A stretch of 59,040 bases of DNA, filler included, from Sphacelaria rigidula (lineage: Eukaryota): assembly GCA_964200075.2 (NCBI GenBank). It is 4 parts of 4 records of this genome, joined end to end, with 100 filler letters (N's around TTAATTAATTAA, not from the genome) between each part and the next. Parts side by side here need not be neighbours in the genome. Positions count along the whole stretch, not along the records: positions 29,578 to 44,259 come from CAXNAA020002098.1; 3 more parts are not named here. One strand, given 5' to 3'. The notes under the pieces are model-generated. The model was not told the origin of the DNA, ran no database searches, and worked only from the letters and a program-made list of their open reading frames with translations. Shown in pieces: positions 1,293 to 44,359 of this stretch. Every line of letters starts with the position of its first letter. Position 1 is the stretch's first letter. A program made the position numbers and the translations under genes.

Positions 1293-3640
1293 TATGGGCG
1301 CGCCTGACCCCCCAAACTGGGCAAAAAACGTGTCACCGACCAATATTACGAGAAGACACGAACATATCGACTTTTGGAGCTTATCTAGGCTCGTCGGGTA
1401 AAATTGCCCGACGTCATCGGAAGAGAACGACATGGATCCAAAATTCATATAGAGCGCCCTACCGTTTCTTCCGTTGTTGTTCCTCATCTATTGCATGCCA
1501 CTGCGTAGTATTTTCGTCCACGCTTGCGATACGCTGGAATGTCAAAGGCTATTATAGTTGGGTTGAACCAACCCAACCCAGACCGAGAACCCTCGGGCAA
1601 GGGCGGCACGTACATTCTCTGAACAAAGTGAGGCCCTGGGAGACCCCAAATCTGCGCCTGTGGCGCCGTTATATAAAAAAACACGTTCTGCTCACACGAG
1701 GAGCCCACGGGACTGTCAGTGCTACTTGAATTCCGATTCTCGTTGTACACACTCAAACTAAGTAATACCAACCATGAACATTTGTAGCCCAACGCCTGAA
1801 GCGGGAACGCTGAACCATCTATTTTTGCAAAATCATATGCTCAATATGCGACAGAACCATACGTACTGATGAACTTCGACGAGGATGGCCCTTACACAGA
1901 CGAGTGGAGTACAGTCGCCGGGTGTGTCATGTAGGCTGGGCGGATGTTGGTCGACTTCCTCGTCATGTTTTGAGGAGTTCGATTTATCGGATCCCATCAT
2001 TCTCCAATTTAAGCGGATGAATGACTCGCCCTATGCAGGCGCATTTGTTGTTCCGCGGGTATGCATTTTTCATTTCATGAATATGCATGAGTTTCATCGG
2101 ACTCCTAGGATATCGTGTTGCAAGAGGGAATAAAAACAAACCGTCGGTCGTCACCCACCACTGCCGATACAACGGACGCGTGTCTTAGGACGGGTTAGTG
2201 CACTGAAAGACATGAATGGGGCTTCGGTTCCATGTGGCTTCAGCAAAAGTGGACTGACGACTTTATGCTGTCCTCTGTGTCGTCTTGACGCAGTATAGTT
2301 GACCATTCGGGAGGGTAAGTTGATCCATTTTGATTTTATTGTCAACACCGAAATCCGGATCTTTTCATGGAAAGCTATGCTTCAAGCATGCTCCTAGCGT
2401 GCCCACAACGCGTTCTTATCTGAATCGGGGCCTGGGGCAACGATTTGAGGTCTGGCAACGCACTCTTCGCTTAGGGAACACGTTGCACCCGCCTTGCCCG
2501 AGGATTCTCGGTATGCCCTTGTTGTGGTTAGGGTTAGGTTTGGTGTTATAATTTGTCCGCTTCGCTGCCACAAGATCGCAACGATGATTCTTATTGAAGT
2601 GTGTTGCCATTGCGGATACTGCTCTCTCCTCTTGAACGCCAGCTTGCTCTGTGGCTTTCTTTTCTCCTTCAGTTCAGAGGTTGTCCACACTTGCCTCCAG
2701 GTAAGATTAGATACAAAGCTACGCTATCGATGGTGGCGTGGTGATGACACCGGGTGCAGGAGAACGAGCGCCATCTTTGCCACTATCACAAGCGATGCAC
2801 AGATGGGGGTATATATCCGCAGACACGGAAGCCTCTAGGGGTTCGGTCGAAGGTTCAAATTCTACACCTGCCGAACATTCCACACATGTGATATATCAAC
2901 CATCTGCAGTATCAAAAGTCATTCATGGTTGTAATCTATTCTGAGGCCCTTGGACAGGGGTGAGGTTTTTGCATGTCGTGGAAACCGGCAAGTGTTGGAG
3001 GCGCTGGTTTGCGCTCATAGCCCAAACGGTTGCTCTCATTACTCATCGCCAAGGCGATCGATTAGGATGCGTTTTTTTGCATCATCTGCGCCAAGACGGC
3101 AGCTACAAATCGGGATTCGAGTTTTATAACAAATTAAGTGAATAAACACTTGGGTTTTTTGCGATATCCTCGATCACCGTAACTCCTTTGGTTCCTCAAT
3201 GCTATCAGACTGCAGCTTGGACCAACACACCCCGGTGAGTAGCCTAGGCACGCCGTGGTTCGTAGCCCGGGACGACGATAATGGGAAATCGTCGAGTGGA
3301 AACCCCACTCGAATTACAAGTACTTTGGGGAATTTTACGGCGTGCATAATCAGGGGGAGGGGGGGGGGGGGGGGGACACATTTTTTGTGTTTGTGTTCGT
3401 TTTTTGCCTTGAGCCCTCATCGCGTTTGAGGGGGGGTGCAGCGTATGTTGAANNNNNNNNNNCGTACTAATTTGTTGCTTGCCTTAGTCGTTTGACCATT
3501 GACCACGCATCGCTTTCGAGACGGAGCAACGTGCATAATCAAGGGTGCATAATCAGGGGATGAACGAGATCTCCGGTCTGTTCGTGCTTTTGGTCGGTGA
3601 CACTTTTTTTGCCCATTTTGGGGGATTAGGCGCGCCCATA
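1293..3640. mobile_element. Pair of ~50-bp inverted repeats, possibly the ends of a non-autonomous DNA transposon
   Basis: 1293-1343 (TATGGGCGCGCCTGACCCCCCAAACTGGGCAAAAAACGTGTCACCGACCAA) is the near reverse complement of 3590-3640, with TA at both outer ends. No transposase is recognisable inside, and there is a 10-N gap at 3453-3462. They could be two independent insertions. Confidence 0.45.
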
Positions 3641-6830: not shown

Positions 6831-7554
6831 TCCTCACACACGTATACGTCGGACTCACCTGTCTCGAACCGTCCAGTCACAGGCAAACTGTCACTGGGTC
6901 ACTTCGACACTGATTCGGGAGCTCATGCCTGCAAGGATGACCCCACGCAAACAGGTAATGCTTGCCGTCTGTACTATGTTGGTGAACCTGTAGTCTCGCT
7001 TTCTCGTGAACACCAACTTATCCATGTGAACCTCGTGAGACGCAATGGATCGATTTGCTCAAATGTGACCAATCACAGGTTGGTCTGTTTGAACAGACCG
7101 AAGTCTTTGTTCATGAAGGTAGGCAGGCCATTTACCTCACGTCATGTTTCGATTACTCAAAGGACAGTCGTCGGGTTATGCTCAAGCGCCTCTCGTACGA
7201 ACTGCCCTGCCAGACGTGTGCCCCCCTGCGGAAACCAACTTGTCAACCGACCCCCCGAACATCACGGGTCCCCCTCCGCTACACATGCCTGACCCTATGT
7301 TGGTGACAAACCTACCAGATGCGCCTGAACCAAAATCCCCATCTACATTACTGGATAGGTTTCCCCCAAAACAACGCGCCAGTTTTCAAAAGTTGTGGGA
7401 TGCCATCCACCCTCATTTGCGGCATATTGTTTTCTGCCTATCCGGCGATGGATGGACACCCACTGTAACCGATAGATTGAGATCCATCTTGATTAGATAT
7501 TCTGAACGGTTTCTTACTGCACCCTTGGATTTAGGTCGATGTACCACGACACCT

Positions 7555-8850
7555 TTCAAGATCAAAATCCCTGATGGCACTCCGCCTATCGCTATGCTTC
7601 CGTACCGTACGATCCCCCTCTTCGCGGATAAGATCCAGGTAATCCTCGATGGTTACTCACCCGCCGGTTTTATTCGGCACTCGACGTCTCCGTGGGCCTC
7701 GCCTTTAGTAGTCGTCCGTAAGAAAAATGGCAAAATAGGGTTGACGGTTAATTATTAACGATTGAACGCTGTCACTAAACTCGCCAGGCTGCCACTTCCA
7801 CAGATTGATGAAATTATTGACTCTCTCGGCGGGGGTAAGGTATTTTCGAATTTTGACATGCAGTCCGGCTACCACCAACTCGTGATGGATCTGAATTCCA
7901 TTGAACTGGCAGCGTTTTGCACGTCACCAGGTTTGTAGGAGTGGCTGGTTACACCACAAGGTGCCGCCGGAGCTCCAGGTGCGTTTCAACGTGTAATGTT
8001 CCGTGTGACTGATGGATTGCCCAAATGCAATATGTACCTTGATGATGCGGTGTGCCATGCCTCCAAAACCACCGAACACTACGAACAGTTGGCATCATTC
8101 TTGAATCGGTTTAAACAACACAACTTATAACTCGCCCTCCCCCAAATCCCGTGTTGGCGCCACGAAAATTGAGTTCTTGGGTCATTGCATGACCCCTGAA
8201 GGTCGTAGCCCAAACCTCGAGAAGGTCGCCGCACTCGCCGATATGCCCATGCCACGGGACATTTCTCAACTGCGTTCCTTGTTGGGAGGTCTAAGCTACT
8301 ACAGACAGTACTTGCCAAACCTTGCCCAGAAGCTAAAACCCCTCATCACCCTCCTCAAAAAAGGGGTGAAATTTGTGTTCACATCGGAAATGGAAACAAC
8401 CGTCCGCCGTCTTCTTGACACCCTCTCGCGCCCGCCGATTCTCGTCTTCCCCGACTGGTCGGCAGCGGAACAAGGTTTCTGCCCTTTCCGTCTCCACACA
8501 GAGTCTTCCAAAATTAGATTTGGCTGCACATGAGAACAGGAGCAAGACGATGCTACTGTTCGTCCCATTGTATATCTGAGTCGCACCACTTTTCCAAGTG
8601 AACAGAATTGGTCTGTCATGGAATAAAAGGCCGGCGCAGCTGTTTGCGGCGCGCGACGTCTGCGTCAGTATTTGTATGGCATCCCGTTTGTGATTTATAC
8701 GGATCATGATTCTTTGGAAAGCCTCGCCAAAATGGCGGAACACAACGCTAGGGCACAACGCTTGTTCGAAATCCTCTCGTCTTTCAACTTCCAGTTGAAA
8801 TATCGCACAGGCCCGCAAAATGCAAACGCCGACTTTCTGTCACGCTTGCC
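7555..8850 (+). pseudogene. pol: Gypsy reverse transcriptase and RNase H remnant
   Basis: RT motifs: STSPWASPLVVVRKKNG, FDMQSGYHQ, PQG, YLDD (8035-8046), LRSLLGGLSYYRQY. RNase H motifs: RPIVYLSR, FVIYTDHDSL, NANADFLSRLP. In-frame stops occur (e.g. 7756, 7937). Confidence 0.95.
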
Positions 8851-9889
8851 CACACCGGCTCAACCTATCGATGAATCCCCCATGGTACGTATCGCCGATC
8901 CCACCGAAGACATTGTATATTTCATAAGCAGAAATGGACAGGTCTCTACAAACCACTTTCACTGAGAAAAAATCCGGCTTTAGGCATGGGTGGGCTGATG
9001 ACCGCAGCCCACGCATCACTTCTTGGCAGCTTGAAACCTCAATCGTTGTACTCAGTTTGGAATGGACTGTCTACGAATACCGCTGGCTATGATCATTTTC
9101 GAGCAACTGGCCAGCGCATGGTTTTCGCAGCAGGTGTAGAACCGTCCTTTGCTGACTCCGTCTTACCAGTTCAAGTTCGAGATTTGATTTCGATGGGACT
9201 CGTGCGCGACGGACCGCCGAAACGGCCACCAAATTAGTCGTATCTGGTCCTGACCTTCCCCTCCCTGCCCCCACCCCGGTCCCCGATAGTTTCCTTGCGC
9301 CTCCTCAACCTCCACGACGCAAGGCCGCCAGAAAATCGACTCCGACCGTGCCGTCCCTGCCAACCATAGCCGAAGCCACGGCTATACCCCCCTCCCTTGG
9401 TGATGATGATGCAAACATCACCACAACACCCACCACGCTAATCGACGCAGGAGTAGACGTCAACGTGACGTCTGAGAATACACCACCTGATAGGCTCACC
9501 CTTGATTCCGACGTTACCGCTTCGTGTCACCCCCATCCCGAACCGACCCAACGCGAAGTAGACGCTTCAACAGATGGCGTATTCAAGGAAAGTTTGACTC
9601 TCTCCTCCCACGCTGATTGGGCCCGGGAACAACAGGCAGAACCTGCTTGTGAATCAGCTATCCATTATCTATCCAAAGGTTGCCCATGTCCATTCTCAGA
9701 AGCTGAATTCCTTTCGCCCGTCGGGAATCTCAAAGCCCCCACGCAGAATGAAGTTACTGAACTTGCGCGGAAAGGTATGCTGCATATGGATGGTGATGGT
9801 ATAGTTATGTTGGTTCGCCGGCCCACAGCGGCCCTCCCCAGGGGAAATCCTACGAGTCGACGTGCCCGCTTGCTAGGTGATGAACCCAT

Positions 9890-10690
9890 CCGCATCTATG
9901 TCTCGATGCCCCTGCGCCCATGGGTTTTACACGAATGCCACTCACAGGCATCGACTCATTTAGGCGCCATTAGGACTTCCCAGATGTTGGAACGTTTTTA
10001 TTGGTGGATTTGTATGGATCAGGCGCGCTAACTTCCAGTCAAACAGTTCGTTGGCCGGTGGTTTCCATGCCACTCTCAAGCGGGCCTAGTGAAGTAGTTT
10101 CGTGGGACTATTGTGGTCCTTCGCCCCTAACGGATAGTGGTGATAAGTGTATTTTGTTGTTTACGGATAGATTTAGTCGGCATGCGGTGATGCACGCTGT
10201 CCCTGCCAGTAGCTATAGCGCGGAAGGTGCCGCCAACATTCTTGTATATATGTATATCCCACGGTGGGATGTGCCCAAACGCTTACTGTCTGACAACGGC
10301 CCGCATTTTTCAGGCAAACTTTCAGCCGCCGTCAGTAACCGTTTGGGTGCCCATCGCATTTTTACTAGTTCATATCACCTTTCCAACAATGGTGGAACGG
10401 AACGAGTGAACCATACGATGGCACAGATGCTTGCTGCTGTCGCAAATGAGAGACAGATGGACTGGGATCTGCACCTGCCCCTTGTCCAAATGAACTCTAA
10501 CAATTCAGTCAATGCCGCTACGGTATTGTCACCGAATGAAATTCATATTGGTCGCATGCCTAGGTTATCTTTAACGGTATTCGAATGCGAAAATACAGGC
10601 AGACATCAGAGTCTGGATCGTGATGTTGTAGAGTATCATTTGTCGGTAAGCAACCGTCTTCGTCTTGCATATGAGGTGGTACGAGAATAG
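9890..10690 (+). pseudogene. Gypsy integrase remnant (partial HHCC and DDE core)
   Basis: HECHSQASTHLG...RFYWW, then SWDYCGP, FTDRFSRH, LLSDNGPHF, NGGTERVN. The CC half of the zinc finger appears deleted near 10030. Confidence 0.93.
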
Positions 10691-14690: not shown

Positions 14691-14790
14691 NNNNNNNNNN
14701 NNNNNNNNNNNNNNNNNNNNNNNNNNNNNNNNNNTTAATTAATTAANNNNNNNNNNNNNNNNNNNNNNNNNNNNNNNNNNNNNNNNNNNN
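14691..14790. other. Artificial contig spacer
   Basis: 44 N + TTAATTAATTAA (stops in all six frames, 14735-14746) + 44 N. Confidence 0.97.
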
Positions 14791-29477: not shown

Positions 29478-29577
29478 NNNNNNNNNNNNNNNNNNNNNNN
29501 NNNNNNNNNNNNNNNNNNNNNTTAATTAATTAANNNNNNNNNNNNNNNNNNNNNNNNNNNNNNNNNNNNNNNNNNNN
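29478..29577. other. Artificial contig spacer
   Basis: 44 N + TTAATTAATTAA + 44 N. Confidence 0.97.
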
Positions 29578-29744
29578 GATGCCAGTAGTACGTCGTGTGC
29601 ATGTGCTTACACTTACGGATGTGCACACCATTGGCTGCTTTCAGCTTTGGAACCCAATATGTGTTGTAGAATCGAAGCGGTTTTGTCTCCATCGACTGTG
29701 ATCGGTTGAATATTATGACGTGTCCCCCTGTCCGCGTCATGCAG

Positions 29745-29877
29745 TGTTGGTGCGGACCTGCCTCGAGCGACTACACCAAGCACGGTGAATCTGACCACTG
29801 CACAATGAGGTGCGCCGGCGATGACAAACTGATCTGCGGCGGCTACGACGCCATGAACATGTATACACTCCGCAAAG
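29745..29877 (+). CDS. WSC domain / knottin-repeat protein, WSC C-terminal exon (gene 5'-truncated by contig end)
   Basis: CAG|...G|GTGAGG. Encodes CWCGPASSDYTKHGESDHCTMRCAGDDKLICGGYDAMNMY, the C-x-CG...C-x3-C-x-G-x5-CGG...Y WSC signature. FGTQY lies just upstream at 29646-29660. Confidence 0.9.
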
Positions 29878-30009
29878 GTGAGGAATGGCGGCAAGTGGGC
29901 AATACGTGCGTCTTGTTGGCGAGCAATATTTGCGCCCTGTTGGGTACAAGGAAGGCACCGTACTAGAGGCCAGAGAACTCGTTCTCGAGGGGCTGAGTTG
30001 AGCGCTCTG

Positions 30010-30228
30010 GTGTATTGTGTTGGAGGACCGCGTGCTTTTTGGGTCGCATCGGTGCGTGAACACTCCCATGGCTAGGGCTAGGGTCAGGGTCAGGGTCAGT
30101 GTTAGTGTCAGTGTCAGGGGCGCGGTCCCTCCAGGGACTGGCCCGAGCTGTCTTGAAAAACGTCGGTTCCGGGGTGTTTTGAACTCCGATGCGGTCCAAA
30201 CAACACGCGGTCCTCCCACACATTACGC
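30010..30228. mobile_element. Telomere-repeat MITE, divergent subfamily copy (intronic)
   Basis: TIR GGAGGACCGCGTG / CACGCGGTCCTCC. Internal GCTAGGG/GTCAGGG variants. Same layout as 412-624. Confidence 0.75.
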
Positions 30229-30324
30229 TATCTTCCGCCTTCCCTGGCCCCCGGTGCTGCTTCCCGCCCTCGTCCGTCACGTGGGTTCTGCTGTGCCATG
30301 TACCGGCCATCACTCCTGCTGTAG

Positions 30325-30414
30325 ATGAGTGTTCTGGAGAGCATGAAAAGTGCGAGAGGCAGTCGGACTGCTGCGACGAGTTCATCTGCCGCGGTACCCC
30401 TGATCTAGTCAAGG
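30325..30414 (+). CDS. WSC/knottin protein, knottin exon 1 (phase 1-1, 90 nt)
   Basis: TAG|...G|GTGAGT. Encodes DECSGEHEKCERQSDCCDEFICRGTPDLVK, in frame with the WSC exon. Confidence 0.88.
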
Positions 30415-31142
30415 GTGAGTTCCATGTTGCGTGTTGATAGTGTGACTCAAGTATATCGTCCAACCTCTATTTTCACTGTCGATTTTTCGGCACGAGCTTA
30501 GCGGGAAGTAACCGCCTAACACGTACGACTCATGCTTTGGTTCCTCATCACGCGCGGGTACCCGACGGAGTCCGTGCCTGACAGTTTTATACCGTTCAGC
30601 GGGAGACGAGTGGGGCGTACTCACGCTCCCTACAAGAAAGTTGAATAGATGGTGACTGAGTCTACAACGTTCGCTGAATTATAATTCAGTCAGCGCATAT
30701 GTGCTGCCGCAAGTGTGCTTAACAGCCACCATGTATCCCCATCGAGCTCTCACGAGACAGCGCCACACACCTCTGACCGTCAACACGCTACTCGAGGTCA
30801 CGCCATTCGTGTTTCATGTGTCCCAAGCGCAATGAAGGTGTGACTGCCGCTGTGCCGGCCTGTTGGTGCTTGGTCGGCAGCGAGTCGGCTCAAACTGCCA
30901 TGGTTTGGTTTCCAATCATGGTTCGCCTGGCCCAAGGAGACCCAAGAGAGCCTCGTGCAATGTACTGTAGCTGCTGGGCGGTTTCAGCACGCAAGTACAC
31001 TGTCCCTACGTATCCCCTTCATTGTGGGGCTTGGAGCGACTCTAAGCTGTACGAGCGAATGCTACCCCATAGATGCCGCATGAATTATACTTGGGAACCT
31101 GACGATAGTGCTTCCGCGTGCCGTGCGGTCTCGCGTCTTCAG

Positions 31143-31271
31143 TCTGCCAGAAACCACTGGAACCTACGCCGGCTCCCGTCGACTCGTGTGGTGCGGAACG
31201 CGAAGAGTGCGAGTTTCAGTCGGACTGCTGCGACGACTTGGTGTGCAGCGGTACCCCCGAACTAATCAAGC
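31143..31271 (+). CDS. WSC/knottin protein, knottin exon 2 (phase 1-1, 129 nt)
   Basis: CAG|...C|GTGAGT. Encodes VCQKPLEPTPAPVDSCGAEREECEFQSDCCDDLVCSGTPELIK and is paralogous to the previous exon. Confidence 0.88.
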
Positions 31272-31629
31272 GTGAGTCACCTACTGCCGGCGTCATCTTT
31301 AAGGGAACACAAAGTTTTGTCTCTCGGTGTTTTCCTTCAGAGCGATACAGTTGAATCTAAGTCCCACCTCTCGCCTTACCCGGCAGCTGTGAAGAAGTGG
31401 GCGTGTTCTCTATTTCTGCATTGTCATTCGGCCGCCATCCAGGGGTCTGTCGAAAAACGATTTTTCAACACGTAGGCCCCAAGATCGAAAATCCGAGTTT
31501 ATGAGGGGGCGGGACACCCAGCCTGCCATCTCCTAGTTTATAGCCGAGGCGTCGGTGGATGCGGTCGGCTGCCGTTTGCAGAGTTCCCTTGGCATGGAGA
31601 TCGCTGAGATGGCGGACACGCCGCTCCCA

Positions 31630-31842
31630 CTGTTATGAGTGAGAGGACCGCGGGCTTAGAGGACCGTATCGGAATTTGAACATCCTTATGGTTAGGGTTA
31701 GGGTCAGGGTTAGTGATGGGGTTATAGTCAGGGGTGTGGTACGTGCAGGGACTGACCCGAATGGTTTTGAAAAACGTCGATCCTCAGGTGTTTTGAACTA
31801 CGGCGCGATCCTCTAAGCACGCGGTCCTCTCACGCATTACAC
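31630..31842. mobile_element. Telomere-repeat MITE, copy B (intronic)
   Basis: Collinear with 412-624 along its whole length. GGTTAGGGTTAGGGTCAGGGTTAG at 31690-31713. Confidence 0.82.
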
Positions 31843-32280
31843 CCCCCCAAGACCATCGTAGGGTACATCATCTACCATGATACATTTATGGAATCATGTT
31901 CCGTATCGTGTGCTTCGAGTGTCTGCCAGTAGTCCGGGCAAGTTTGATGAGGCGTGAGATAATGTTGCTACTTTGACTACAGGCTGTTGCTACCGTGCGC
32001 TCGTGTGCGTGCATGTGTGTGAGCGTGGCCGACATCCGAGAACATCGGGACAGAGTGGACCAGAAGCAGAAGCAAATAGACGAACCTCGCGAAGCCCACT
32101 TGACCTTTCTTGCAACAAAAGTCGAGAAGAATATTATGAAACTATGACGATTTTCGGAAAAATGCCCTCCGGGAGAGGAGGAGGAGGTGGACCTACGTCC
32201 CCAAACCTATTTTTGGACAGATCTCTGCATCATCTTATGTTTTCGATTCGTGCATCCTGTGGACATTTGGGCCTTTGCAG

Positions 32281-32439
32281 TGTGTCAGAGGCCGGTCATG
32301 GAGCCCGAACCACGCCGCACACCTGTGCCTGCCCCAGCACCGCGTGATGACTGCAAGAAAGCCGGATACGTGTGCATCACCAACTCTGACTGTTGCACCG
32401 ATCTGACTTGCCGAGGTGGAGCTGGAGGCGGGGAGAAGA
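32281..32439 (+). CDS. WSC/knottin protein, knottin exon 3 (phase 1-1, 159 nt)
   Basis: CAG|...A|GTGAGT. Encodes LCQRPVMEPEPRRTPVPAPAPRDDCKKAGYVCITNSDCCTDLTCRGGAGGGEK. Confidence 0.88.
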
Positions 32440-34219
32440 GTGAGTTCTAATGTAAATAGCCATCATGTTGAAAAAAGACGTGACACGCACATGTCCTTTA
32501 AATCTTTGAACCCGACATTCCATTATGAGTATTGGAACTACAAAGACATCTCTTCGCCCAACAACGGAAAGTACGACGTGCATTGAGGCATATAGATGAA
32601 TTAAAAAACGAAACTGCGCGAATATGACCCACCCGAGAACAAAATGTTTTGAAACGATACAAAAAAACCAAAACCAGCCGTAGACATCATCAGTACAACA
32701 CATAGGTCACCTGGGTATATCAAATGACATCTGAAGAGGGTAGCTTCCGTCAGGTGCCGGTCCCATACAACAGCCGATCGTCGAAATTCTGGATGAAGCT
32801 TTTCATTGAGGATGAGGATCCGGAGGATCAAAATCCTGTATCCACACCAAATCTTCGGAATATGGGTCCATTCCTTCACCCACTGATAGCTATCGACAAC
32901 AGCTACACGCCCTTCAGATTTGGATTTCGATAATCGACGAATTGGGGTCCTAGATGAAGAAATAAACTTGCGGAATTTGGGTGATGCGATTGGTGCAATG
33001 TTTGTCATACTCCCATCACACTTGCCGATTCTACAATCGATTATTCTCTCGAATTTTCACCCCGAGCCGGTCCAACGGTGACAACGAACATGACGCACTA
33101 AGGCATGACTCATCACAAATATATATACATATATATATATATATTTCCGGGGTTAAAACTACGCTGTTACGATTCTTTCGAGCCATTTTTCTCCATTCCG
33201 ATCACAACTGACGGTTCCGCCGTGAAATAGGCGCTCGAAATTTTACCCTGAGCCGGCCGAAGGGTAACGTCCAAAATCATGAGTAGTGGGACATGAGTCG
33301 GGACAGAAATACGCTTTTCATATATTCTGCTTTTTTTGCGTGACAAAAGTGTGGATGCGCTTCTTCCAAGCCATCGTTTGCTCGATTCCAATCACAACCC
33401 ATGATTCTACTGTGCGATATTCGTTCGAAATGTCTACCCCGAGCCAGCCCAAGGATGACGTCCAAAACCATGAATATTAAGGTATACCTTATTGGAACGG
33501 TTCTGTTAGACTATAATAGAGCGTTTCCGCCACCCAAATATTAGGGAAATAGCGTCGAGGATTCATTAGCTCTACGTCTCCATAAAATAGTATTTAAAAA
33601 AAACGAGATTCTGCACAAATTGTTGTTCGTCCTCTACTGTCCAGATACATTGCACTACAACAGGGGAATCCAGTAGTCAATCCACTTGACAATATGAAGC
33701 ATTCATAATATGCTCTAAATAAACGCAGCAGCAAACACATGCTACACCAGTATAATAAGTACTTGGTACTACTGATCTGTTCGAGTATGCCCGCACTATA
33801 TCCTGTGTGTGTCCCAGCTGAAGCCTCAAGTTTGGGGGTTGGGAGTAGCAGCTTGGAGTGATGTATGGTCTATGGTCTATATAAGTTGTGAGTGAATATT
33901 CCATGGAGTGAATAATAAGAGAAAATAAAATATATCTGCTCTGTGGTATCTATCCCTAACACTTCATTAGTGCTCGGTGCCAGCGATTATGATAGCTGCC
34001 CCTTCCCCCCCCCCTCCCTCTTGCTCCGTCTCGAAAGGGATGCGTGGTCAATGGTCAAATGAGTACGCCCCCCCCCCCCTCCCTCTCCATCTTGTTTTCT
34101 CGATTTCTGTTAGAATTTGCAGCATATATTTGCACGTTTTCGCACGAAATAAACTACCGTGGTTGACCAGCGATGCCCCGTCAACTACTGTCGTCTCTCG
34201 CCGCCGCGTACGTTTGCAG

Positions 34220-34230
34220 CGTGCCAGTAA
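34220..34230 (+). CDS. WSC/knottin protein, terminal coding micro-segment (T-C-Q-stop)
   Basis: TTTGCAG|CG TGC CAG TAA. Phase-1 compatible, and supplies the same x-C-Q that opens the two previous exons, completing the third six-Cys module. Confidence 0.75.
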
Positions 34231-35425
34231 AGCCAACACCTCTGACTTCGACCCGCTGTGGGACTCGTGTTCACGTCAGCTGCTGTCCTAGTTGGTGGTG
34301 CTAGCGTAGTTTTGGGGAGAATATGATTGGCCGTCGATCGCTTCGTCAACTACAACGGCAGGGTCCCGCAATTTCGGTCGCAGGGAAGATAGTTACATGC
34401 CCCGTACTGACTACGTGTCTGACTTGAGGGTTCGCGACTCCCCCGAAACTTCAATCACCGATATATTGACACCCAGCGTGAGGTTACTGGATGAAGTTTC
34501 AGCGCACAGGTAGTCAGTTGTTATACTGTAGGAGCATCCGCGCAAGAGAAGCTGCGGTAAGGATAGGTAGATGGTCAAAACACATTATTTGTTCTTCGTG
34601 TTGATCATATTTTTGCGCCCTCTTGGGCTCAGCACAAGATCGGTTCGGAGCCAACTGGTGTAGTTGTGAACCTCCCCAGGAGTGTATTTCGATATTGGAG
34701 CACATAGGATGAGGGAGGTGGGGGTCAGGGGTACTGTAATAAATACGTGGTCACGAGCACTGTGCTATAGTGTACGTGATGTAGATTTTCATGAAGACTT
34801 TAATGTGTGGTAGAGTCCTGAGGCCGCGCTTTCGCCAGCAGAGCGGAAACATGGTCGGGTAGATCCCTGTGCTGCAGTACTATGTGATGCAACGTGGCAT
34901 CGTGCTTCCGTAGTTCACATGAGAACGTCGAGGTTTCTCCAGGGGGTGGTGCATTCCGTTACTTTCGGTATGGACGAGTTGGTGTGGTGTTGGATTCAAC
35001 GAGTTGAGTCTTGCGCGCCGTAAATGCTTCCTGTGACGGATTTAGATGTCCAGTGAGCTGTACCGTATGTAATATTTCAACAACTCAAACTGTGAACTGC
35101 GGGAGATCCTGTACGCCGTAATTTTGATTACTTTGGACAGGCGGTTCATTCCGTATGATAATCTAAGTTTGATCAGGTGTCAAATATCGTTATTCTTGGA
35201 GCGTGCGCTCCGACAAAGGCAAAACGACCCACGAGTGTTGCCGAACAGTCTCATCTTCAGGACATCATTCGTGTATGCTTGTTTAGTTGTTTTTGCCTTC
35301 TCGGTGTGTTTTGTGGTTGGTCTCGCTGGTTCACTCCGCCTTCCTGCACCGCGTGGATATTGTCTATCTTGGCGTGTTACGCATTCTCCTCCTGTCTTGG
35401 ACATGGGGTGTTGGTGGTTATAGCT

Positions 35426-36265
35426 TCACCTTGCCTCTGCCTGGAGAGAGGTTTGGAGAACAGGCTGCAGCAGCGGAAGCGGTCATCATGTATGTAATAA
35501 ACACAAGCACTTGTCCAACAGAGAACTCTTGCAGTAATGAGACAACGCATGAGCTAATGCGTCCGTGTTGTTTTTGTTGGCATGACGGCACCTCACAGCC
35601 AACTCGAACAGAGTTGGTACTGCCTATTTCAGCTGCAGTTGCTCAACTCTTGATCGGTTTTCATTGCAGATTTTCAAACACGGTTGAAGGTGCTATTTTC
35701 CTGGCGTACTGCGTCACGTACAGACTCACTTGCGGTTGGGGAGTTGTGAAGCCGTCAACACGATGGGGCTGGTGACTTTGTCATAAAGAGGGAGTTAGCT
35801 AATGCAGTGGCTGGGGTCTATCAGTATGAGTGCCGGGAGATACCATGGTGTCAGCCTCACCAAGCTCCCACGTGGGCAAACTCATACAGACCTAGCTATC
35901 CTCCCTTGACTTATCACCTTGCCTCTGCCTGGAGAGAGGTTTGGAGAACACGCTGCAGCAGCGGAAGCGGTCATCATGTAATAAACACAAGCACTTGTCC
36001 AACAGAGAACTCTTCTTGCAGTAATGAGACAACGCATGAGCTAATGTGTCCGTGTTGTTTTTGTTGGCATGACGGCACCTCACAGCCAACTCGAACAGAG
36101 TTGGTACTGCCTATTTCAGCTGCAGTTGCTCAACTCTTGATCGGGTTTCATTGCAGATTTTCAAACACGGTTGAAAGTGCTATTTTCCTGACGTACTGCG
36201 TCACGCACAGACTCACTTGCGGTTGGGGAGTTGTGAAGTCGTCAACACGATGGGGCTGGTGACTT
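35426..36265. repeat. Direct repeats of ~352 bp (35426-35778, 35914-36265) around a 135-bp fold-back spacer
   Basis: Near-identical copies with a few substitutions and two small indels. The spacer and the repeat ends form a long imperfect hairpin at 35771-35918. Confidence 0.9.
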
Positions 36266-36504
36266 GTATCATTTGCTTGCTTGATGTTGGCTTGCTGGGT
36301 AGCTTTTGTAAGCAGCAAGGGGTGCGTATGAAATCACGTACTGAAATATTTCACCCATACTTTGAGAATGGAATACGACATGCTGTACGTGACATACGTA
36401 CTCCGAAATGCCTGTTACATATACGGCGGATACCGCCCCCATCAGTTATTCGCCCCCCCCCCCCCTGGTCATGGCCGTGTCTTATCACATCACCTTTCGA
36501 TTGA

Positions 36505-36650
36505 AGAAGTGCGGAGAACAAAATCTCCGATCTGATAGGTCGTGAATTCAACCATCTTCTATATAAATTACGATGGTTGAAATCACGACGTATCAGATCG
36601 GAGTTTTTCTTTTCCACTGCACGATTTCGATGAAAAAATAATGTGCTAAA
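36505..36650. mobile_element. Palindromic fold-back MITE-like repeat, copy 2
   Basis: CCGATCTGATAGGTCGTGAATTCAACCATC / GATGGTTGAAATCACGACGTATCAGATCGG hairpin, homologous to 22481-22652. Confidence 0.75.
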
Positions 36651-37935
36651 ACACGCCTGTAAGTCCTGATCACTCACCCTGAAGGTATAATAACGCAGAA
36701 CAATATTCATTGTGATGACAAGAAAAGAAAATTTATCACAACATCAGATAGTCAAAAACTGAAATTGAAACCCTGTACGACTACCCGTCGGGAAAGGACC
36801 CTTTTCACCCTCGCATAGGCCTTGCAAACTCACCTAATTTATTAATCGAAAATGCAGATCCTGAGTCCCCTCTTCAGCACTTCACAGCGCACTACTGTTT
36901 TGCTTAGATGGTTTTTTGCATTAGGCAATACACTGAAAGAAGACTTGAACTATGGCTGACGATGTTGGCTGGTAACCACCAACCCAGTCTCCGTTGAAAA
37001 TGATGCAAAACAAACACAACAATCAAACACGCAGTAGATGTGCACTCAGCATACTCGATACCCATCCCCATTAATATCGTTCCGACGTACCGTCTATACC
37101 GTAAGGTTGACATCAGGCGATAGTCTACCGTCATCACATACAAATATAACTATGCGGCATGCCTACCTCCAGCCTCCACAAACTATTTCCATCTGTGATT
37201 ATCCTGCCTTACACACAAAATGTATCCTGATCGTGTGCATAGAAAATAGACACTGCAAAATGGAACTTGCGGCAGTAGTATCGTGCTACTTCTCCAGATA
37301 GAAATTGAATACGACGTTGTCAACTATAATGCCAGAGATATTGAACACAGGAATGCACGGTATTCTTACCTCCGGTAACACGAAACGCCATGGTGACTTC
37401 CAACGCCCTGCCGGCGTCACGAAAAAAGCAGGTACGCATTCATCTCCATACATCATCATCAGCTACCCTGCTGTTACCGACCGTGTATGAGCCGCCTTAC
37501 TCGTATAATAGTTGACATCGGTGAACATCTGCAAGCTTGACCCGTACATGCTATCTCTACGGGGGAAACGTCCAAGCGAACTCGTTCGCTTCACACATCC
37601 CAAAATACATGGTGCAGACATTGAATAGAATTAGGTGAAGCGTAGTACCTCGCTACGGCACGTTATGTGTACACTCTACAGAGAAGCAATTCAAAACATT
37701 AAAAAAGAACTCTGTTGATCACTCGAGAAAATTTAGGCAAAGTTAGTGGCTGATGATTCCATTCCTTTCGCATTACCAATATCAAATGCAAAACTCATTC
37801 GTCGCTCTGCCCACAAGAACCTCTCCAAATAGGTACGGACCATCATCAAACTCCTCAATTGATTTTCCTCTGCATGAAAATATAGTCAAGCACACCATAG
37901 TACGAGTATCTGTTATGGTATTTGGAGGTCAATGG

Positions 37936-38262
37936 TGTCAGCATTAAACGCTGTGTAGTACCCTGAACGTGTCGCAGGGGCAGGCGCCACAGCTGCAAAG
38001 CTGATCTGAAGAAGGATGTAAACACAAAGTACGCAGCTTGCATTGATAGTTCCCGAAAACGTGGAGAGAAGAGTAAACAAGAAGGTGACCATCTACATAT
38101 CTACAGTACCATCACTCTGACAGTTACAACAAGTTGAACCGTAACCAATCACACCAACTGTTCTGTGTCTAACAGTCCGAATGACAGGCTGCAACTATGA
38201 CAACGCCTTAATGCTCTTAAACGTTGACTACTAAATGAATAGACATATATGATTTCTTGACA
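37936..38262 (-). repeat. Copia 3' LTR
   Basis: TGTCA...TGACA termini. About 12 substitutions (counted by eye) plus a (TA)n length difference versus 42248-42584. Confidence 0.95.
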
Positions 38263-38721
38263 TTCCCCCTCAACGGAAATAGCATCTTCAAAATATCATA
38301 CTCTATCACGATCATCTTCAATTAATAACATCAGTATAATGTTAAAACGTTCACGAGCAGTATACTCACATTGAACACACCAAACCGTGACTAACTAATC
38401 CCGAAGAAGCTACAGGCAGCAAATAAATACATTCAAACTTAAAACTAGTATCATTACTGCTACGATGAGCTATTCATTCCTTGTTTGAACTAATAACACT
38501 ACTGCTACGGTAAGTTATCTCCTCCGTGTCAGTCGTGCTTTCGTCGTCGTCGTTGTCTTCTTGATTGCTTGAACAGTCACATCGGTGTTGGTCCAGTCAG
38601 AACCTGAGTAATTTTCTTTTAACAAATAAGACGCAAAAGTTACACAGAAAGAAGACACAGAGGGCAAGACACGGAAGGCATGCTCCTCCGCCCAAACTGG
38701 CTCCCCCTCCCAAGCCTTCTC

Positions 38722-41716
38722 TTAGTTGTTGAAGTTCCTGATGAGATTCATAAGGTAACGGAACCTCTGAGTTGAAAAGAACTTTGTTTCAATGTCAGCT
38801 GTTTTATTCTCTGTTTCAATGTAGTAAACTGTGATCTTCCCAGACTCCACCAATTCCCTCATGCAGAAAAAACACAAAGCGTATCTTTCGTCCTTCCGCT
38901 GGAAATACGGTTGGCAATCACTTGAAGAGTTGCTGTGTTGTCTAGGTAGATAGGGAGCAATGCTACGGTAGGGGTACACTTTCTTCGCGAAAAATTGTCT
39001 AGTTTAGGAGCTCCTAACGGTTCTAGATGCAGAAGAATATGGATCAGGGCATCCCTGTTTGCAGATTCATTCGGGATATCCCCAGCACACTGGAGTAGTA
39101 ATCCTGGCATACTTTTGAATATTTTCATAAGTGGTGTTTTGCATGAGATCAAGGGCTCCTAACAATTCTAACCTCAGAAAATATTTGTGCACCCCTGCCG
39201 TAGCATCAGTGTAGGTGCAGTGTTAAACGATTACCCACATCCCATCTCAATAATCATACTCGAGCAATAGACCGCCTCCTTGATGGCAAGTGCCCCGGCA
39301 ATCAGTTCCGCTTCCATCGTTGATTGTGCAGTAAGTCCCTGTAGCCCGACTTCAGAGCTATCCTGGGCTTTCGCCAGCATGATGATGTGTGATGACGTGG
39401 ATTTGGAGCTGTCGGGATTGTTCCCCGAGTAGGCGTCTAAAAATACCGTCAAGTGGAATCCGCCCTTCTTGTATCATATGCTGTGGTCGATCGATCCAGC
39501 CAAATATCGCAGGAGGTGTTTTGGTGCAGTCATGTGTGGAATTCCGGGCGCAGCCATGGCTCGAGCTAGCTGGTTAACAGCGTACTGAATATCATAGCGA
39601 ATTACTTGTGCCAGATACATGACTGATCCAACAATGGATTGATATCGTTTTGCGTCCTCCTCGTTTAGCAGCTTTTCCACCGGTTGTTTGATAGAAACTT
39701 CGGGACCAGTTCCAGGTGTGGTCGCAGGGTTGCACTTATCCATACCGAATCGTTGTAGAATACCCTTGGTGTACGCTGCTTGATTCATGGTGAGGTGTCC
39801 AAGAGCCCTGTCCCGGGTGACCTGCATCCCGAGAACTAAGGATACGTTACCCAAATCGGTCATTTTATACTTGGCCATTATTTTTCGTTTGAGCATTTAT
39901 CTAAACTCGTTTTGTCCTTTCCAGCGATTAATAGGTCATCTACATACAGTGTGAGAATAGCAGAGATATTTTCTTGCTTTTCCGTTTCCGAACCCGTCAA
40001 TTCATCCAAGTGCTTCGGAATGTATATATATATATATATACACGGGTCGGACTTGAGAGCCACAAGACCAATCTGCCTCAGGTATTTGTCCATAGTAACC
40101 CACCAGTTTTGAGGCGACTGCCGGAGTCCATAGAAAGAACGACGAAGCTTCATGACGAGAGGAAAACCCGTCGCAGGGTCCTTCGGCTCGACACCAGATG
40201 GTAGTCGCACGTACATTTCCTCTTCCAGCGGTGCATTCAGGAATGCCGTTTGAACGTCGGGTTGAATGACGTCCAAGTCCAATGCAGCTGCAACTGCTAA
40301 TGTTATGCGAATGCTTTGTATGCGGCACACCGGTGAGTCAATCTTTCCACAGTCGCGTCCGACCCCCTGTCCCCAGCCCTGTCCAACTACTCGAGCGTTG
40401 GAAGTGTTGTCAGATTTGATCTTGTGAACCCATTATTTGGAGCCGATGCTTTTCAGGCCAGCCGGTATTTTGTGTTGCGAAATTAGGTCGTAAACCCGGT
40501 TAATTCAAAGGCTGTCCATCTCCTTGGTTATCGTAGCTGTCCATTTCTCTGCTTGAGGAACTTTCATTGCTTCCTTGTACGTGGAAGGTACGATGACAGT
40601 ACTCTGCCCATCCGGAATCTGGAGGTACGTGTTGCTGACAGTGTACATGTATTCGACTCAAGAGTTCATCTGGTAGTTTATGAGCTACATCAGGTATCAC
40701 TGCGTCCATGTAAAAAGATTCGTTAAACTCGTGTACTACGTCAGTCTCCACAGCAGTCGCATAGAATATCTGAGCGGAGTAGGCTAGTCGTCTCAACTCG
40801 TTGCGAGCCTGGTCTGACAATTCACTAGTTTGAGGGTCTGGAGCCTGTACGGGTTGGGAATGTGAGCGCGTGCGTGTGCTCACACCAGACGTAGGTCCTG
40901 CTCCGTTATCTGCAGAATTAACATGAGGACCACAGTCAGCACCAGCACCAGTACTAGTAGAGGTGGAACCACCAGTGGACATGGCCTTTGAAAACTTGTG
41001 TAATTGCTCGTCAGTTTTGCGTTGTGAGCGGTCCACAGGGGCGTAAACGTTGCTGGTCGGAGACGCACGCAGGTCGGGAGCAGAGGTGTGCTGCCTAATA
41101 TCGTCGAGGAGGTCGGTCTCGGAGTTGTAGCCAGATCCTCCCTCCCACGCCGAGTCTGTGCCGAAGTCGATATTTGTAGATTCGCTCATCACCTGCGGTG
41201 CATGTACTGCTGGGATTTCGATGAACACAACATTCCTGCTTTCAACTATTCTCCTTCTTTGGGGGTCCCATAGTCTCCAACCTTTGCTGTTGAAGGCATA
41301 ACCTACCATGCCGGCCTCGAATGCCTTAACCGCAACCTTCTTGGTGTGTACTTCAATATGTACAAAAGCACGGGCACCAATCACACGAAGACGCGACAAC
41401 TCCAGCTCAACCCCGTTGAGACGTTTAAACAGGGACTCCATGTTCAGCGCAGAGTGCGAAACACGATTAGTCAGGCATGCAGCCGTGTAGGCCAATTCAC
41501 CCTAACCCTAAAAGATGGAACCCCGCTGTCCACCAGCATGCATCGAATCATAGCAGCCAGCGTCCCTCCATCGCGTTCGGAAATCCCAATCTGCTGAGGC
41601 GTGTTGGCCGCAGCAAACTCGATGCGAACTCCAGAGTTCGAACAGTATGTGTGAAGCTCGTTTCCTCTGTACCCCCCTCCTTTGTCAGCACGGGGTCGCT
41701 TAACGAGGGCTCCACG
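38722..41716 (-). pseudogene. pol: Copia pol remnant: integrase core, reverse transcriptase, RNase H
   Basis: INT: RADKGG, TPQQIGISER, IVESRNVVF. RT: DVQTAFLNA, FYGLRQSP, LYVDDLL, YQSIVGSVMYL. RNase H: AQSTMEAE, YLDNTA. Frameshifts, stops and an insertion are present. Confidence 0.95.
38961..39205. mobile_element. MITE inserted in the Copia RNase H
   Basis: 19-bp TIRs TGCTACGGTAGGGGTACAC / GTGCACCCCTGCCGTAGCA. It interrupts the RNase H frame between EMGCG and PIYLDN. Confidence 0.8.
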
Positions 41717-42247
41717 CAGAATCAACATGAGGACCACAGTCAGTATCAGCACCAGTATTAGTAGAGGTGGAACCACCAGTGGACAAGGTCTTTGAAAACT
41801 TGTGTAATTGCTCGTCAGCTGTACGTTGTGAGCGGTCCACAGGGGCGTAAACGTTGCTGGTCGGAGACGCACGCAGGTCGGAAGTAGAGGTGTGCTGTCT
41901 AATATCGTCGAGGAAGTCGGTCTCGGAGTTGTAGCCAGATCCTCCCCCCCACGCATCAACGTGGTGTTCGACCCGGCGAATGCACGCTTGGAAGTCGCGT
42001 CTTTCCAACTACCCCTGGAACAGTCACTCCATGACCATGGTCTATACACATTCATCATACGCGTGGACCGTGCGGCCGGCGCGGGTACAGGAAAGCAGGT
42101 GGCTTCAGCCGAAGGTGACTCAACTCACGTGGATATCCCGATACAAGCGCCCGATATGCGTTGATCCTAATCCAAGCGCCTCAGAGGGGATTGAGAAAGT
42201 CTTCCCGGAAACTCTCAAAGATACTCGAAAACACGGGGCTCATAATC

Positions 42248-42584
42248 TGTCAGAATTAAACGCTGTGTAGTACCCTGAACGTGTCGCAGGGGCAGGCGCC
42301 ACAGCTGCTAAGCTGATTTGAAGAAGGATGTAAACACAAAGTACGCAGCTTGCATTGATAGTTCCCGAAAACGTGGAGAGAAGAGTAAACAAGAAGGTGA
42401 ACATCTGCATATCTACAGTACCATCACTCTGTCAGTTACAACAAGTTGAACCGTAACCAATCACACCAACTGTTCTGTGTCTAACAGTCCGAATGACAGG
42501 CTGCAACTATGACAACGCTTTAATGCTCTCAAACTTTGACTACTAAATGAATAGACATATATATATATATATCATTTCTTGATG
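42248..42584 (-). repeat. Copia 5' LTR
   Basis: Direct repeat of 37936-38262. The terminal CA on the plus strand reads TG. Confidence 0.93.
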
Positions 42585-42610
42585 AAGGGTTTGGATGAAA
42601 CACCATATTA

Positions 42611-42681
42611 TGTAATGCGTGAGAGGACCGCGTGCTTAGAGCACCGCATCGGAATTTGAACATCCCCATGGTTAGGGTTAG
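42611..42681. mobile_element. Telomere-repeat MITE, truncated left part
   Basis: TGTAATGCGTGAGAGGACCGCGTGCTTAGAG...GGTTAGGGTTAG, after which similarity ends. Confidence 0.75.
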
Positions 42682-43276
42682 TAGTCATGGTCCTATTCCG
42701 TCTGCCTACAGTGCACGAGTTTCATTTGAGCGTTGGATAGGAAAGGGGCCATGTTGTGCATGATCTACGCTGGTGATGGGGCTCTAATGACACGGTTTCA
42801 CGGAGTATCACTTGTTGCTCGGCAGCTTGGTGGAGGTCAATCTAGCAGTCAGGAGCTGCTGCGGATCTTTTGTGTTAGTTGTTTTGGATATGTTTGTTAA
42901 GGATAGACTCTGGCATAGACTATCGAGGCAATGCTCACTGACACAGCGCAGGTAGCAAGTATGTGCCGTTCGGTGTTCATGAGGATCAACCGGTGTAGGT
43001 TGAAACGTCGAATATTGGAACTTTCTAGAATACGTATAAAACAAGTACAGTACACTGTGGATCGATCTGAGTAACGGTCCAGTACGATCGAGAAAGAAAA
43101 AGAAAGTGTGGTCAAAAGGTCGGGTAGTAATCAACTATTCAAACAAGTTCCTCTTTGATATTTTGGAGGGGAAGGAATGCCCTGCGCCAGCAGAAGGGCA
43201 GCTGCTGGCCAACACTGCAGGAACGCCTCCACCGATCGCGCGAACCAGTGAAAAATAGCAGCGCTGTAATCAAGAC

Positions 43277-43990
43277 CTGCTTCCCATTTTGTACCTCGCC
43301 ACCACCGGGTCAGCGAACATCCTTGTGCGACAGTACGAGGGCCGGAGGCAGGAGGAAGGACTCGGCAATGGGATTGCTGCCTGGAAAGCCCTTGCCGGCA
43401 AATATGACAGCTACACGAAAGAGACGCGACGAGCATGCTACGAGGAGCTGTGCAATACAAAGATGCAGCATGGACAGGATCCGGAGGACTTCGTTTACAA
43501 AATGGACGACCTTTGGGCCCGGCTGCATGACATGGGAGAGGTGATCTCTGACGAGCGTTACGAGGACATCATTCTGCACTCCATCACGAACGACTACGAC
43601 TCTGTACGACAGACCAGCTTCCGCGACCGCAACTACGGGTTGGAGGAGATGAAGTCCACCATGCGGAACAAGTTCGTCGACAACCTTTCTCGCGTGTCCA
43701 AAAAATCTGTTGTGGGCCGCGGCGTGGCCATGCAGGCGGCGCACGGCGACCTCCGCAGCATCCAGTGCTTTAACTGCGACAAATACGGATACCGTCGAAA
43801 CGCATGCCCTGAACCTCCGCGACAGAGATCACAGCAGCATCAACAACAGCAGAGGCAAAAGAGAAAGCACTGGAAGAAAGGGGGAGACGGAAATTCCAAG
43901 TGGTGCTCTTTACACAAGACAAAAAGTCACAGCGATGAGCAGTGCTTCAAGCAGAAGCAGCATCAACTTGGCCAACATCAGCAGCGCGCG
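43277..43990 (+). pseudogene. gag: Copia-type gag fragment with zinc knuckle
   Basis: LATTGSA...GNGIAAWKALAGKY, MQHGQDPEDF, and CFNCDKYGYRRNAC (CX2CX4HX4C with H>Y), plus a second WCSLHKTKSHSDEQC motif. No pol or LTR nearby. Confidence 0.85.
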
Positions 43991-44259
43991 AATTGTTCAG
44001 ACAGCAGAACCCGAACGGCCAAGCTTTGTGTTTTCCTTCTCATCTGAGTGATACTACGGTAGGGTTGCACTTTTCGAGCGAAACTGTTTCTCGGGGTGTT
44101 GCACAGATCGTTTTGAGAATCGGCATCAATTTCACTTGAAAAAGACTGAAAATTATGCCGATTCACGAAAAGGCCCCTATGTGCATCTCCATGTCCTGTC
44201 CCCGGAGATTTGGGTTGCACAGTAAGCCCCATATATTTGGGCTCCTACAAGAACGAGAC

Positions 44260-44359
44260 NNNNNNNNNNNNNNNNNNNNNNNNNNNNNNNNNNNNNNNNN
44301 NNNTTAATTAATTAANNNNNNNNNNNNNNNNNNNNNNNNNNNNNNNNNNNNNNNNNNNN
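44260..44359. other. Artificial contig spacer
   Basis: 44 N + TTAATTAATTAA + 44 N. Confidence 0.97.

Follow-up and report, generated by a model that had tools for sequence, protein, structure and literature searches.

What kind of protein carries a WSC domain and, behind it, an array of small cysteine-rich modules that resemble knottins, and is such a protein really made? This question is raised by a gene found between positions 29745 and 34230, on the plus strand, of the 59,040-nucleotide (nt) stretch of DNA that was analysed here (the window). We propose that the gene encodes a secreted, glycan-tethered multi-knottin protein that was built by exon duplication, a reading to which we assign a probability of roughly 55%. 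Directly established are the gene model, its splicing and transcription, the identity of the WSC domain, the cysteine framework of the modules, and their sequence likeness to knottins of solved structure.

The window consists of four pieces of about 14.7 kb that are joined by spacers (44 N, TTAATTAATTAA, 44 N) at 14691-14790, 29478-29577, and 44260-44359. The gene lies in the third piece (29578-44259) and is truncated by the piece border, which lies 167 nt before exon 1. Its visible part comprises five exons that join in frame through four phase-1 GT-AG introns, with donors reading GTGAGG or GTGAGT and acceptors ending in TAG or CAG. Joined by their coordinates, the exons give 522 nt, or 173 codons and a TAA stop, and the resulting partial product of 173 amino acids (aa) contains 23 Cys. 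An initial annotation of this DNA had proposed five exons with canonical GT-AG splice sites in frame, and this gene model is supported with its four junctions and its phase-1 exons. There are eight sequencing runs that contain this DNA; none of them is recorded as RNA, and four (X1-X4) were classed as RNA by guess. Contigs of X1, X2, and X3, which belong to one study, and of the DNA run X5, which belongs to a second study, were aligned to positions 29600-34400. The parts of the gene, with the evidence for each in brackets, are as follows.

29745-29877, + strand: exon 1, visible part, encoding the C-terminal third of the WSC domain (5 Cys) and a short spacer, with a phase-1 end (translation, Pfam, Atlas, and the joint to exon 2 in X1-X3)
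29878-30324, + strand: intron 1, 447 nt, GT..AG, phase 1, which holds an element at 30009-30226 that resembles a miniature inverted-repeat transposable element (MITE) (joint skipping 447 nt in X1, X2, and X3; none in X5)
30325-30414, + strand: exon 2, 90 nt, encoding Cys 1-5 of module 1 (translation P0003; Toxin_12 at an E-value (E) of 0.0067 and 17.5 bits, cut-off 21)
30415-31142, + strand: intron 2, 728 nt, GT..AG, phase 1 (joint skipping 728 nt in X1, X2, and X3; none in X5)
31143-31271, + strand: exon 3, 129 nt, encoding Cys 6 of module 1, the Pro-rich linker of 13 residues that follows it, and then Cys 1-5 of module 2 (translation P0004; sub-cut-off matches to Toxin_19 and Toxin_12)
31272-32280, + strand: intron 3, 1009 nt, GT..AG, phase 1, which holds a second MITE-like element at 31631-31843 (joint skipping 1009 nt in X1 and X3, but neither listed for X2 nor present in X5)
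32281-32439, + strand: exon 4, 159 nt, encoding Cys 6 of module 2, the Pro-rich linker of 22 residues that follows it, and then Cys 1-5 of module 3 (translation P0002; Toxin_12 at E 0.0096, below the cut-off)
32440-34219, + strand: intron 4, 1780 nt, GT..AG, phase 1, with repeats (joint skipping 1780 nt in X1, X2, and X3; none in X5)
34220-34230, + strand: exon 5, coding part, encoding Cys 6 of module 3, a Gln, and the TAA stop (translation; the spliced frame closes at 522 nt)
34231-34386, + strand: 3' untranslated region (UTR), reaching at least to 34386 (a 1393-nt X3 contig of depth 1326.6 joins exons 3 and 4 to 34220-34386 without a gap)

All four junctions that had been predicted from the sequence (29877/30325, 30414/31143, 31271/32281, and 32439/34220) are spliced in the RNA-type contigs of X1-X3, where they occupy 11 of the 12 run-by-junction cells; the single empty cell is 31271/32281 in X2. 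None of the four joints is present in the DNA run X5. Word depth is 1327-3460 for the joined contigs versus 2.3-7.5 for the contigs that hold only intron. The 1393-nt X3 contig spans exons 3, 4, and 5 and at least 156 nt of the 3' UTR, and it probably continues through exons 2 and 1, because its depth equals that of the X3 joints on both sides of exon 2. We infer that upstream of exon 1 the mRNA extends for about 714 nt that the window piece does not contain. For the acceptor of exon 1 itself (29745), depth in its bin is the sole support, as the upstream partner lies outside the stretch examined. The gene model is thus confirmed as correct and the gene is transcribed, and the region is the 3' portion of a gene that is expressed in an intron-rich eukaryote. 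A pseudogene or untranscribed relic was rejected on the basis of the contigs in X1-X3. There was no exon skipping or other alternative splicing among the joints listed for X1-X3 and X5.

The first of the two kinds of domain in this protein is the WSC domain. Exon 1 matches the Pfam WSC family (PF01822) at E 1.3e-5 and 25.8 bits over profile positions 50-82 of 82, and the score falls just under the cut-off of 27.8 because two thirds of the domain are missing at the exon and piece border; the 98-aa unspliced frame of exon 1 reaches E 6.6e-6. In Atlas, the first match of exon 1 scores 0.97 to WSC clusters, and 28 matches carry the WSC set. The five Cys of the exon also stand in the order expected for the C-terminal part of the domain (C-W-C ... 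C ... C ... C-G-G). The Pfam and Atlas matches together back the assignment of exon 1 to WSC in the initial annotation. No N-terminal WSC motif was found elsewhere in the window. As for variation in this exon, a divergent X5 contig differs from 29771-29828 by 12 substitutions and 4 indels, and there is a loose X1 end at 29833, which suggests that a paralogous or allelic WSC exon exists.

WSC domains occur in proteins of different build, among them SiWSC3, a secreted fungal lectin. The C-terminal part of the domain is also shared with the Wsc1-type wall-stress sensors of yeast, but in these the domain leads into a stalk rich in Ser/Thr, then a single transmembrane helix and a cytoplasmic tail, none of which is present after the WSC domain here. 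We rejected a sensor of this type, as the 129 residues after the WSC domain consist of three Cys modules and then a stop, with no hydrophobic stretch of transmembrane grade (maximum Kyte-Doolittle value over 19 residues, KD(19), 0.42). In brown algae, WSC domains are very numerous, with a reported 444 proteins in Ectocarpus sp. versus 320 in E. subulatus (10.1101/307165). Another report describes brown-algal WSC domains fused to other modules, for example CAP/PR-1 (PMC12879055), and such PR-1/WSC fusions resemble the present protein in that WSC is joined to another module.

The second kind of domain is the array that follows. A regular expression applied to the spliced product finds three modules of the form C-x6-C-x5-CC-x4-C-x9/10-C, with loops of 6/5/0/4/9, 6/5/0/4/9, and 6/5/0/4/10, which confirms the loop lengths that the initial annotation had given for three modules on Pro-rich linkers. 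These linkers measure 13 and 22 residues and contain 4 and 7 Pro, respectively. Each module is about 30 residues long, and its six Cys in C-C-CC-C-C order and its loop lengths are within the range of the inhibitor cystine knot (ICK). Within the 59-kb window, read in all six frames, the strict five-Cys pattern encoded by single exons has three occurrences, all in exons 2-4 of this gene, and it appeared in none of 200 first-order Markov resamplings of the window, so chance open reading frames were rejected as an explanation.

The closest matches of known structure are knottins. When a 30-position profile of the three modules was compared with the sequences in PDB, there were 29 distinct matches at E<=10, and every match with E below 0.1 is an ICK or knottin peptide. 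The best is 6nk9_A (E 2.1e-5), followed by 1s6x_A (6.8e-4), 2n1n_A, and 1emx_A, with the latter three below 2e-3; further matches are a double-knot toxin and then squash trypsin inhibitors and sponge asteropsins. In the alignments of the best matches, all five Cys, an S-D-C-C motif, and an L-x-C-x-G motif are in register. The three-dimensional structure of 6NK9 was determined by nuclear magnetic resonance, according to a source that groups it with ICK-fold sea-anemone peptides (PMC9866706). The Pfam queries were single exons, each without its own Cys 6, rather than the spliced chain. With these, exon 3 alone matches Toxin_19 at E 0.0031 (18.1 bits versus a cut-off of 23.2) and Toxin_12 at E 0.013, and there is a weak, sub-cut-off match of single exons to Conotoxin_I2. 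In Atlas, exon 3 scores 0.81 to theraphotoxin clusters, a value within the range of shuffled sequences that can serve only as a lead. We regard the PDB likeness as good, though not conclusive, evidence that the modules are knottins, and the knottin-like character claimed for them from the sequence is borne out at that level by the PDB matches and the weak matches to Toxin_12.

The best-matching solved structures are venom ICK peptides of the Toxin_12 kind, namely AcaTx1 of Anthopleura cascaia (6nk9), VSTx1 (1s6x), kappa-theraphotoxin-Gr3a (2n1n), and heteropodatoxin 2 (1emx). They share with the modules the C-C-CC-C-C framework, loops of 6/5/0/4/9-10, and the S-D-C-C and L-x-C-x-G motifs. There are also clear differences, as the three modules here belong to a larger protein in which a WSC domain precedes them, their composition is acidic and not basic, and no pro-peptide or cleavage motif is recognisable. 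The likeness to these peptides may be convergence on a common framework.

The arrangement of the exons suggests how such an array could have arisen. Exons 2, 3, and 4 are all multiples of three in length (90, 129, and 159 nt), and in every case the intron interrupts the frame one codon ahead of Cys 6, with the result that the repeated unit consists of Cys 6 of the preceding module, a linker, and Cys 1-5 of the next module. Exons 2 and 3 are 75-76% identical in DNA over 87-105 nt (exon 2 versus 31173-31277: 75% over 105 nt). This identity, together with the constant position of the introns, points to growth of the array by tandem duplication of one phase-1/phase-1 exon unit. Because the unit starts one codon before Cys 6, its gain or loss would leave complete six-Cys modules. 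The initial annotation had spoken of interchangeable phase-1 exons; the symmetric phase-1 exons are there, but actual interchange was not seen, with only constitutive joints among the joints listed, and interchange is thus a potential of the gene and not an observation. A few variants fall within the array. In X5, 31191 G>C and 31194 C>A in exon 3 change two residues in loop 1 of module 2 (codon effects by reading), and 32310 C>T in exon 4, present in X2 and X5, changes a linker Pro; by reading, none of the listed variants affects a Cys.

To place the modules among known proteins, we made an exhaustive HMMER profile search of 1.84 billion representative proteins, in which there were 10 matches at E<=1e-3 and none at 1e-10. 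The best match (P0005, E 2.8e-7) is a 70-aa open frame on a 603-nt metagenomic contig from ENA, and it is the only close relative that was found. It is 54% identical (30/56) to the unspliced frame around exon 3, and the match extends into read-through residues on the acceptor side (S-S-V-C-Q) and on the donor side (K-R-E-S), which implies the same exon unit and the same intron positions. From its sequence, P0005 looks like the same exon unit in a related organism, although it differs from the gene in the window in being a single exon, with a four-residue insertion after Cys 5 and no surrounding context. The other nine matches (P0006-P0014, E 2e-6 to 9e-4) are metagenomic proteins in which this framework recurs in tandem. 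P0006, for example, has 1365 aa, Big_5 (bacterial Ig-like) domains, and, by reading, seven C-terminal modules, several of them exactly 6/5/0/4/9. These proteins repeat C-x6-C-x5-CC-x4-C-xn-C as the present protein does, but by reading several have prokaryote-style signal regions, and they have no WSC domain; at such E-values, their arrays need not share descent with the modules in the window. It is an observation in its own right that prokaryote-style metagenomic proteins such as P0006-P0014 contain knottin-like arrays that Pfam scores as the spider-toxin family Toxin_12. Over all ten profile matches, seven reach the Pfam cut-off for Toxin_12, and none carries WSC. Word-indexed protein searches found nothing with exon 3 or exon 1 as the query and only P0005 with the exon profile, while profile scans gave 41 pattern matches in metagenome contigs and 15 in viral contigs, none of which was confirmed. 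One fragment aside, the architecture was not found in the collections searched.

There are several results that weigh against the proposal of a secreted, tethered multi-knottin protein. In Pfam, no single exon reaches the gathering score of any knottin family (16.6-18.1 bits versus 21-23.2); for Toxin_12 (PF07740), the single exons score 17.5, 16.6, and 17.0 bits versus a cut-off of 21. The PDB matches are strongly affected by composition bias (10.2 for a score of 27.1), and with a profile so rich in Cys the framework by itself can produce an alignment. An AlphaFold2 model of the exon-3 product, which is without its own Cys 6, has a mean predicted local distance difference test (pLDDT) score of 53.4, and a model of the C-terminal array of P0006, which served as a substitute of equal spacing and was folded with no alignment, has a mean pLDDT of 53.1; both are too low to reveal whether the Cys pair as I-IV, II-V, and III-VI, with the third disulfide threaded through the ring of the other two. 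Between modules 1 and 2, the nonsynonymous and synonymous distances (dN 0.28 and dS 0.33 over 29 codons, a sample far too small) give no clear sign of purifying selection outside the Cys. The N-terminus, with any signal peptide, lies outside the window piece, and all of the RNA support comes from a single study.

With both AlphaFold models at low confidence, the modules could instead belong to another small disulfide-rich fold, such as an unknotted disulfide-directed hairpin or a Dickkopf- or colipase-like domain, and act as rigid spacers or cross-linkers of a matrix protein in which WSC is the sole ligand binder. A wall or matrix protein would suit the Pro-rich linkers and the acidic composition (isoelectric point (pI) 4.49), the loops of the modules diverge freely, and among the relatives found with the profile there are some that also score on Dickkopf_N (P0008, 25.1 bits versus a cut-off of 25). 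However, the exons in the window give no Pfam match to Dickkopf_N at E<=10, and their modules have six Cys each rather than the ten of colipase and Dickkopf domains. Since the PDB matches below E 0.1 consist entirely of knottin and ICK peptides, we consider a different fold unlikely. Hevein/CBM18 was rejected as a further candidate, being absent from the Pfam families listed at E<=10.

Returning to the proposal of a tethered knottin array, there are properties of the chain that bear on where such a protein would act. WSC domains and dense disulfide modules are found in secreted or surface proteins. Secretion is expected here because a chain with a WSC domain and 23 Cys in 173 residues would not be expected in any compartment other than the secretory pathway or the extracellular space. 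The pI of 4.49 given above is that of the 129-residue tail after the WSC domain. The chain stops one residue after the last Cys and its end is hydrophilic, so by reading there is no hydrophobic signal of the glycosylphosphatidylinositol (GPI) type. For this protein, we infer secretion, a knotted fold, a ligand, and a role along the following lines. At least one WSC domain, which is of the carbohydrate-binding type, precedes the three tandem modules, and by attaching to a polysaccharide it would hold the protein in the cell wall or extracellular matrix. On their flexible and possibly O-glycosylated linkers, the modules, which are acidic and stabilised by disulfides, could then act as multivalent binding or inhibitor heads; these may serve enzyme inhibition or defence, with defence as the likeliest use.

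Tandem presentation of this kind is known from the double-knot toxin DkTx, in which tandem modules give multivalent binding. DkTx (tau-theraphotoxin-Hs1a; 6cuc, 5irx, 7l2m) has two tandem ICK modules on a short linker, and both match the profile of the present modules (two stretches, E about 0.005). Unlike the WSC protein, it is a free venom peptide of two modules, lacks any lectin-type domain, and has an animal ion channel as its target. Knottins can also be carried in tandem on one precursor in plants and some venoms, as in Momordica TIPTOP and the cyclotide precursors, and it is conceivable that the WSC domain is a carrier or pro-region from which the three modules are cut out as free antimicrobial, toxin, or inhibitor peptides. 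The linkers are long and probably disordered, and the depth of the transcript is high, both of which would agree with such processing. Against this, the three dibasic sites are RK 43 before module 1, RR 129 in a linker, and KK 143 inside module 3, so that just one of them falls in a linker, and the modules are not flanked by any recurring processing motif. With only one residue behind the last Cys 6, the chain has no C-terminal pro-peptide. We find processing into free peptides quite unlikely, and continue to prefer an array that stays attached to its WSC domain.

We also asked in which lineage such a gene might belong. Brown algae have a G+C content of about 50-54%, and cnidarians of about 35-41%. 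The window has 44-55% in 2-kb windows, and by reading G and C predominate at the third codon positions of its exons, which on these general figures is nearer to brown algae than to cnidarians; likewise, the G+C content, the introns of 0.4-1.8 kb, and the GC-rich third codon positions fit brown algae. This stands against an origin from an animal such as a cnidarian, where the protein would be a venom or mucus component that merges two classes of venom protein. Such an origin is improbable in our view, even though the modules find their best match of known structure in a sea-anemone ICK peptide (6nk9) and WSC-domain proteins are listed among the components of sea-anemone venom (PMC6627431). In that source, WSC-domain proteins and ICK peptides are given as separate components and not as a fusion. 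The literature that was searched, mostly by title and abstract, which did not cover the supplementary domain tables of the brown-algal genome papers, describes no WSC-knottin fusion, and it contains no relevant report of knottins or inhibitor cystine knots in brown algae or algal genomes; among the Toxin_12 papers listed, none deals with algae according to its title. The remark in the initial annotation that no WSC-knottin family had been described thus survives the literature and protein searches that could be run, and the protein seems to be an undescribed combination of two known kinds of module.

Apart from the gene, there are several features of its introns and surroundings to record. The two MITE-like elements in introns 1 and 3 are about 215 nt long, with inverted arms at 30012-30052 and 30186-30226 in intron 1 and at 31631-31666 and 31806-31841 in intron 3. 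Their terminal inverted repeats of 36-41 nt are 85-89% complementary, and they contain internal telomere-like runs of TTAGGG/TCAGGG. Word depth of the MITE-like element in X5 reaches about 1.8 million versus roughly 50-240 in most other bins, and the element must therefore be very high-copy. Intron 4 contains three copies of a repeat (33058-33476) that are 186 and 191 nt apart and 62-83% alike over a 42-nt core. Just upstream of its acceptor, the last in the gene, there is a C-rich low-complexity stretch (33947-34107) with a depth of 83,000-2.9 million in all runs, and this extreme depth, together with many loose ends and back-joints, identifies it as a dispersed repeat. No Rfam family reaches its gathering score in 29578-36500, and no intronic snoRNA or other known RNA was found there.

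In the rest of the window, there are remains of retroelements at 39477-42124 (minus strand), 43259-44047 (plus strand), and 7123-10690 (plus strand), all with frames broken by stops. Pfam domains in these frames are RVT_2, a retroviral SH3-like domain, copia-type gag, RT_RNaseH, an integrase core, and an integrase zinc-binding domain; the SH3-like domain was placed by Pfam at 40503-41501 (minus strand), and the others were assigned by reading the translations of the open frames. Among the 142 open frames of at least 95 aa in the window, Pfam recognises only these retroelement domains and the WSC exon. Downstream of the gene, two adjacent frames on the plus strand (35287-35775 and 35750-36262) match no Pfam family and share a nearly identical stretch of about 100 residues, which makes this a tandem duplication with a period of about 490 nt. 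One additional run of N is present at 3453-3462.

Knottins are ultra-stable scaffolds that are known mainly from animal venoms, plants, and fungi. Three knottin-like modules behind a glycan-binding domain would widen the known range of these scaffolds and would suggest a tethered, multivalent mode of use in the extracellular matrix. With its introns placed one codon before Cys 6, the exon cassette is a clean example of how a disulfide-rich array can be built and resized without breaking its modules. A bolder possibility, which we put forward tentatively, is that the modules form a separate lineage of true knottins in a eukaryote that is neither animal nor plant, probably a brown alga, as a polysaccharide-anchored multivalent array on a duplicable phase-1 cassette. 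If this were true, the array could grow, shrink, and diversify its loops quickly, and it would be an algal counterpart to the evolution of knottins in venoms and plant defence, as well as a new natural source of scaffolds. The value of the finding is limited by the fact that both parts are of known kinds and that fold, ligand, and location are predicted only, and WSC domains are reported to be widely shuffled in brown algae (PMC12879055). If the gene is brown-algal, it would nevertheless provide a concrete, testable function for one of the hundreds of WSC proteins in that group.

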